Part shown: positions 7,477 through 7,539 of the stretch, in pieces
Numbering within the stretch: position 1 is the first letter of the stretch
Layout: every line of letters begins with the position of its first letter
DNA from: a virus
Taxonomy: Duplodnaviria > Heunggongvirae > Uroviricota > Caudoviricetes
Virus record (IMG/VR): IMGVR_UViG_2778261559_000019
Length of the DNA stretch: 7,590 nt
Reading direction: 5' to 3' (one strand)
Position numbers and translations under genes: made by a program
The notes under the pieces: model-generated
What the model was told of the DNA's origin: nothing
Databases searched by the model: none
What the model saw: only the letters and a program-made list of their open reading frames with translations

Positions 7477-7539
7477 TGCCGTCCGGCATCGTCCCTGCCG
7501 TCCGGCATCGTCCCTGCCGTCCGGCATCGTCCCTGCCGT
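7477..7539. repeat. tandem direct repeat, 3.3 copies of a 19-bp unit (TGCCGTCCGGCATCGTCCC)
   Basis: Three exact copies at 7477-7495, 7496-7514 and 7515-7533, then a partial copy TGCCGT at 7534-7539. Confidence 0.9.

Follow-up and report, generated by a model that had tools for sequence, protein, structure and literature searches.

What is the origin, and what, if any, is the role of a 19-nt tandem array found near the end of a 7,590-nucleotide stretch of Caudoviricetes DNA? A first-pass annotation of this stretch, to which we refer as a whole as the window, had listed three candidate roles: iterons or other protein-binding sites, a slipped-strand phase-variable switch, or a repeat inside a degenerate gene. 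The last of these came closest and is essentially correct. The array lies within a frameshifted gene of the DUF968/HNH family, and very probably results from a recent, private replication-slippage duplication in the coding sequence, which left behind a frameshift pseudogene and an array without a function of its own.

Tandem Repeats Finder places the array at 7476-7539, with a period of 19, 3.4 copies, 100% matches, 0 indels and a score of 128, every other tandem array in the window scoring 46 or less. By direct reading, the exact 19-nt unit is TGCCGTCCGGCATCGTCCC, which starts at 7477, 7496 and 7515; both approaches confirm the three exact copies, followed by a partial fourth one, originally reported at 7477-7539. 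The C at 7476 fits the register of the array as well. Overall, 45 bases are exactly repeated at a single period, which is far beyond chance. The elements of the array, with the evidence by which each was defined, are the following:

7476-7482, plus strand: first CTGCCGT, the upstream member of the ancestral 7-nt direct repeat (alignment)
7476-7513, plus strand: aligned position of a 38-nt insertion present in the window with respect to all relatives (alignment to 1.4-copy relatives, pairwise differences)
7477-7495, 7496-7514 and 7515-7533, plus strand: the three 19-nt units (Tandem Repeats Finder, sequence)
7533-7539, plus strand: last CTGCCGT, the downstream member of the ancestral 7-nt direct repeat (sequence, alignment)
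7534-7539, plus strand: partial fourth copy, TGCCGT (sequence)

The units are directly contiguous, without spacers; the junction between one unit and the next reads GCATCGTCCCTGCCGTCCGGCATC, and unique sequence, starting with TCGCCAGCC, is found directly 3' of the last CTGCCGT. Each unit holds a short palindrome, TGCCG..CGGCA. The expanded array, taken as 7466-7550, is predicted to fold as single-stranded DNA into a nested hairpin on both strands (-21.2/-27.7 kcal/mol, z -3.9/-5.2), because the CGGCA of a unit is complementary to the TGCCG of the following one. No Rfam family matches the array at gathering thresholds, and the search for promoter and terminator consensus sequences in 6900-7590 gave no plus-strand site, the matches obtained, one promoter-like and two terminator-like, all being on the minus strand. 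Three minus-strand ORFs run over the array (7353-7568, 7396-7587 and 7100-7489); they were discarded as spurious, being antisense to a conserved gene, and the products of the two array-specific ones gave no match in protein records by exact look-up.

The conserved gene is the one read on the plus strand, and its features within the window are:

7064-7342, plus strand: 92-aa hypothetical phage gene (WP_010917803.1, phrog_1212), translationally adjacent to the DUF968 gene (protein comparison)
7335-7339, plus strand: GGAGG, Shine-Dalgarno-like, 4 nt upstream of GTG 7344 (sequence)
7344-7590, plus strand: 5' part of a gene of the DUF968/HNH (His-Me finger) endonuclease family, YdfU family, phrog_96 (protein comparison)
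7344-7505, plus strand: native codons 1-54 of the DUF968 gene (comparison with WP_001265289.1)

The frame starting at GTG 7344 is open up to the end of the window, as had already been noted, and is that of a real gene. Its GGAGG overlaps the end of the upstream gene, whose stop is the TAA at 7340-7342. The array begins 132 nt into the gene and corresponds to codons 45-65 of the window ORF. An intact orthologue with an identical GTG start is found in E. coli O145 RM9154-C1 (L001), and encodes the 351-aa protein WP_001265289.1, annotated as "DUF968 domain-containing protein"; a 351-aa DUF968 CDS with the same GTG start is also present in a second genome, L004, and in many other relatives, and this start is annotated in RefSeq relatives as well. 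Codons 1-54 of the window are identical to residues 1-54 of WP_001265289.1. The translation, earlier described as not protein-like, departs from a protein-like sequence only from codon 55 (7506) onward, and that description does not hold for the preceding part.

The family assignment rests on the intact L001 allele, the window containing the N-terminal 54 native codons, and the domain lying beyond its end. In the intact protein, Pfam DUF968 (PF06147) matches residues 160-343 with an E of 1.6e-63, a HNHc_6 match (E 1.3e-7) falls within the same residues, and PHROG 96 (phrog_96, 'HNH endonuclease') covers residues 1-348 with an E of 5e-164; comparison with the YbcO structure 3g27 gives, by sequence, an E of only 0.38. 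Within the His-Me finger (HNH) superfamily, DUF968 with YdfU is placed in group 7, to which YbcO/DUF1364 also belongs (PMC5714182). As in Qin-type and PPompW-type prophages, the gene is placed between a rem-like/hypothetical pair and rusA-Q; it differs from the DUF968 (PF06147)/YdfU family in being frameshifted at codon 55.

The window corresponds to the early/nin region of a lambdoid prophage; the prophage, of the PPompW type, carries paa and occurs in EHEC/EPEC E. coli. The whole window matches complete E. coli genomes with 99.9% identity over its full length, and the region is found in 556 of 5,426 of them, a carrier being counted when 80% or more of the window is present; identity reaches 99% or more in 526 records. 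Carriers include O26, O103, O111, O121, O145 and O55:H7, and the window also matches GenBank phage records named "PPompW". Genes are ordered in the window as CI-like repressor, Cro-like, ydaT-like, O-like initiator with a DnaT domain, P and DUF1627, followed by a fimbrial pseudogene remnant, paa, sok/hokD, a rem-like gene, the 92-aa hypothetical gene and the gene starting at GTG 7344; in relatives rusA and then antiterminator Q come 3' of the DUF968 gene. The array is therefore part of an operon-like run, formed by hokD, the rem-like gene, the 92-aa gene, DUF968, rusA and Q. PPompW prophages are reported to be widespread among E. coli and to be defective, with inactivations in multiple genes (PMC8112680). 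In the neighborhood of the array, the fimbrial gene is annotated as frameshifted, and so is the DUF1627 gene in L004.

Other features of the window are worth recording. The DUF1627 gene is intact (244 aa), the window having an extra G at 4153 with respect to L004. The fimbrial-protein pseudogene remnant occupies approximately 4572-5105, and is annotated in L004 as frameshifted, with an internal stop. The paa adhesin gene, at 5267-6025, features a SBP_bac_11 fold; together with its upstream sequence (4751-6025) it shows a GC content of 0.35-0.41, against about 0.5 in the flanking phage genes, and this low-GC region looks like an acquired moron. At gathering thresholds, the only Rfam family found across the window is sok (RF01794, 103.9 bits), at 6214-6363, directly upstream of and overlapping the hokD toxin ORF (6304-6516); Sok is an antisense RNA, yet the match is reported on the plus strand, on which hokD also lies. 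Finally, about six imperfect direct repeats, with core ACACCCAAAAAC / GGAACCCAAA, are located at 2431-2627, inside the O-like, DnaT-domain initiator gene (2070-3185), and this cluster probably represents the origin iterons of the lambdoid prophage.

Relatives of the window do not carry the array. Alignment with L001, L002 and L003, all 99-100% identical to the window, shows that they read CTGCCGT-CCGGCATCGTCC-CTGCCGT-TCGCC, that is, a single 19-nt unit followed by a 7-nt reiteration; the window has 38 additional bases, corresponding to two extra units. The nearest relative, L001, features no substitutions over 3.7 kb, and differs by the 38-nt insert and by a 1-nt indel at 4865, where the window has an extra T in a TTTT run. 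A 291-nt query spanning the array was compared with the 5,426 complete E. coli genomes, and all of the 60 top matches listed span 253 nt, 38 less than the query; similarly, the whole-window matches listed are each about 38-39 nt shorter than the window, save one which contains an IS insertion. The single unit followed by CTGCCGT is also found in over 4,500 genomes carrying homologous genes, in phage records, in PLSDB plasmids and in IMG/VR contigs (at least 120 of the latter), and the wild-type product was found on at least 999 contigs by exact look-up among about 15 billion proteins.

The insert duplicates the adjacent sequence exactly, as 2 x 19 nt with units 100% identical, and, 38 not being a multiple of three, it puts the DUF968 gene out of frame. 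The first-pass annotation was right in its arithmetic, by which a 19-nt unit shifts any overlapping frame, and the additional 38 nt of the window did have this effect. The segment 7344-7590 corresponds exactly to the L001 gene plus two units, with a +2 frameshift after codon 54 and an off-frame reading from there on. When the L001 gene is modified in silico, one unit gives a product of 351 aa, two units (+19 nt) give 66 aa, the three units of the window (+38 nt) give 84 aa, ending with ...RFSAMSV*, and four units (+57 nt) restore the frame, giving 370 aa. The stop of the 84-aa frame is predicted to be a TGA 6-8 nt past the window end, a position inferred from L001, whose flanks are identical; the predicted product would be devoid of the whole DUF968/HNHc_6 domain, which occupies residues 160-343 of the intact protein. 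Judging from sequence, the window gene is predicted to be a frameshift pseudogene which lost its function, in a prophage lineage that had previously been reported as defective.

Past the shift, a GTG is the first start offered by the native frame; it overlaps the predicted premature stop (GTGTGA, at 7593-7598 by extrapolation from L001). Reinitiation at that GTG would give a 280-aa protein containing the complete DUF968 domain, and could in principle take place. A 280-aa protein starting exactly there has been annotated once in public records (CTU12585.1), and a 237-aa form, starting from the next ATG, is listed on a NCBI record of 5,375,667 bp; either could come from another carrier of a frameshift allele, or from the source of the window itself.

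Expansion at this site does occur, but very rarely. The pure three-copy array (57 nt), searched by megablast, found no match in complete E. coli genomes, phages and plasmids; in a local control the 57-nt query was left unmasked by the low-complexity filter, and a 1.4-copy locus is unable to seed a match. Artificial three-copy arrays, built with the three commonest other unit alleles, were also without matches in complete E. coli genomes, and none of the 5,426 genomes contains two or more copies of any of the four unit alleles searched. Exact and degenerate two-copy patterns did not match in IMG/VR, GTDB species representatives or JGI metagenomes. At the protein level, exact look-ups of 24 predicted products matched only the two-copy product, the wild type and two N-terminally shortened forms. 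Products with 3, 4, 5 and 6 units are absent from the collection of about 15 billion proteins, and no record was found by exact look-up for four further array-specific ORF products, nor for the predicted two- and three-unit products of the commonest other alleles. Little weight can be given to the missing three-copy product, since pseudogenes are often left without a protein by annotation pipelines. The predicted 66-aa product with two units is recorded on one contig (EFB7975501.1) in the same collection, and falls, when proteins are clustered at 90% identity, inside the cluster of wild-type fragments.

A draft E. coli genome (L005; GCA_012324385.1, contig AASGPN010000084.1), whose assembly is listed for 2 samples, contains exactly 2.4 copies at 3456-3500, with 19 additional nt; it is separated from the window by two substitutions (6410 C/T and 7457 A/G) and one unit. 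This is the only other expanded allele across all the collections searched, and the two- and three-unit alleles may share an ancestor. The comparison of copy number across related genomes, which the first-pass annotation had suggested as a check, thus gave one unit in all but this draft. Against its own proposals, the same annotation had set the case of an invariant copy number and of in-frame repeats inside a conserved gene: the gene is conserved and the copy number is nearly invariant, but the repeats of the window are not in frame. The allele of the window is itself in no collection searched, the kind of event being a textbook one. On these comparisons, the array is best described as a tandem duplication which is rare and private to one strain.

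Slipped-strand misalignment between short direct repeats is a textbook event in E. coli. The ancestral substrate would here be the CTGCCGT heptamer, occurring twice at a distance of 19 nt in codons 45-53 of the DUF968/HNH gene. As the anatomy of the sequence suggests, the nascent strand would have misaligned between the heptamers, the second CTGCCGT pairing on the first one of the template, and the 19-nt interval would have been copied again. One slip would produce two units and another one three, or else both units may have been gained in a single event; a first duplication would create a 26-nt repeat, making a second slip easier. An intermediate does exist, the two-copy allele of L005 with its 66-aa product. 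As in classic slippage duplications of E. coli, 7-nt direct repeats flank the duplicated interval, the period equals their 19-nt spacing, the copy is exact and head-to-tail, a potential hairpin lies between the repeats, and stepwise alleles of 1, 2 and 3 units are observed; particular to this locus are the accumulation of two steps and the fact that both expansions are found in the allele with the strongest predicted hairpin. Three exact units should be more prone to slippage than the ancestral heptamers, so that additional gains and losses are to be expected, at some low rate. Later changes of this kind would include a return to frame, at one or four units, and would be a by-product, not an evolved switch.

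Both heptamers are present in 126 out of 126 copies collected, a figure which is no measure of conservation, given that the retrieval pattern specified both of them for nearly all copies. The two known expansions, in the window and in L005, belong to a minor allele, GGCATCGTCCC, which accounts for 5 of the 126 copies. Only in this allele is a CGGCA found, complementary to the TGCCG of the next heptamer; the commonest alleles of the gene do not feature such complementarity. In a single copy, GGCATCGTCCC is predicted to form a ssDNA hairpin of -11.7/-16.9 kcal/mol on the two strands (z -2.7/-4.7), the corresponding values for the commonest allele being -3.5/-8.1 kcal/mol (z +1.5/-0.6). That an allele-specific hairpin may have helped slippage is suggestive only, as there are two events, perhaps deriving from one ancestor. 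Taken further, GGCATCGTCCC would be a hairpin-driven slippage hot spot which, expanding from one to two to three units, has now become a new hypermutable on/off tract of a HNH-family nuclease gene, a contingency locus at its origin, possibly with the 280-aa reinitiation product; we consider this extended version improbable.

Other explanations were weighed against slippage followed by pseudogene formation. The two extra units might have been made by the assembler, or by consensus polishing, from a source strain having only one. Consistent with such an artefact, the three-copy allele is found in no other public sequence searched, the 84-aa product is not on record, and the sole other difference from L001, the T-run length change at 4865, is of a type that sequencing errors can produce. 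Typical long-read errors, however, do not yield exact 38-nt duplications; the three units are exact, the array, only 64 nt long, fits in a single short read, and the independent L005 assembly carries the two-copy allele, all of which make an artefact unlikely. As to a slipped-strand contingency switch, able to turn a prophage nuclease gene off and on reversibly, the unit is indeed not a multiple of three and the array falls in the first part of the ORF; alleles with 1, 2 and 3 units are known, 1 or 4 units being in frame, and three exact 19-nt units are unstable in principle. The contingency loci of Neisseria, Haemophilus and similar bacteria also have units of a length not divisible by three, placed close to the 5' end of an ORF whose frame is set by copy number. 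Known loci of this kind feature a long tract in all strains, with copy numbers varying between isolates: a conserved, polymorphic tract is there part of a working gene, whereas here the working gene is the one without the tract, and the population is practically monomorphic at one unit. The natural in-frame allele has no array, all intact alleles being single-unit, and examination of complete genomes, phages, plasmids and viral contigs, those with the three other alleles included, gave one copy throughout. The wild-type product is on at least 999 contigs, against one for the two-copy product, and for a prophage type reported as defective (PMC8112680) the benefit of switching is not evident. 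With an in-frame allele lacking the array and a copy number of one in all but a single two-copy draft genome, the idea of an established phase-variable switch was abandoned, and we judge it very unlikely.

A non-reversible change could instead have been selected, if losing the N-terminal 71 residues, or the whole nuclease, were of benefit to the lysogen, perhaps with the 280-aa protein being produced by termination-reinitiation. The GTG overlapping the predicted TGA, as the first native-frame start, would leave the DUF968 domain complete in the resulting 280 aa, and exactly this sequence is the one annotated in CTU12585.1; yet no obvious Shine-Dalgarno precedes the GTG of GTGTGA, and the allele is private, without recurrence, a single case being indistinguishable from neutral decay. 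The chances of a selected inactivation or remodelling appear slim. The probability becomes negligible for iterons, or other protein-binding sites belonging to a replication origin, a partition site or an operator. A directly repeated 19-nt unit does resemble iterons in its dimensions, and each unit contains a short palindrome; the origin of phage lambda, in particular, features four iterons of about 19 bp, in direct orientation, inside gene O, and lambdoid origins are located in the O initiator gene. In contrast, the array lies in a putative nuclease gene of the nin region, about 4.3 kb downstream of the O-like and P genes, inside a coding sequence of which it breaks the reading frame; its units are contiguous, with no spacing, and there is no adjoining AT-rich region, the GC content of 7001-7500 being 0.56. 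Related phages have one unit and no array, and the iteron-like repeats of this phage, about six copies of the ACACCCAAAAAC type, sit elsewhere, in the O-like initiator gene at 2431-2627. The proposal of a protein-binding array was accordingly dropped.

A private slippage duplication, followed by frameshift, remains the preferred reading, and its significance beyond annotation is little. For the ORF starting at 7344, the appropriate annotation is that of a DUF968/HNH pseudogene broken by a frameshift; neither a novel gene nor a regulatory array should be recorded there. The 19-nt array could serve as a strain-specific typing marker for the lineage. At this locus, stepwise duplication between direct repeats of 7 nt can be followed in a clean natural case, alleles of one, two and three units being on record. 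The link with an allele-specific hairpin, if true, would show, on a small scale, how new tandem repeats are seeded by local DNA structure.
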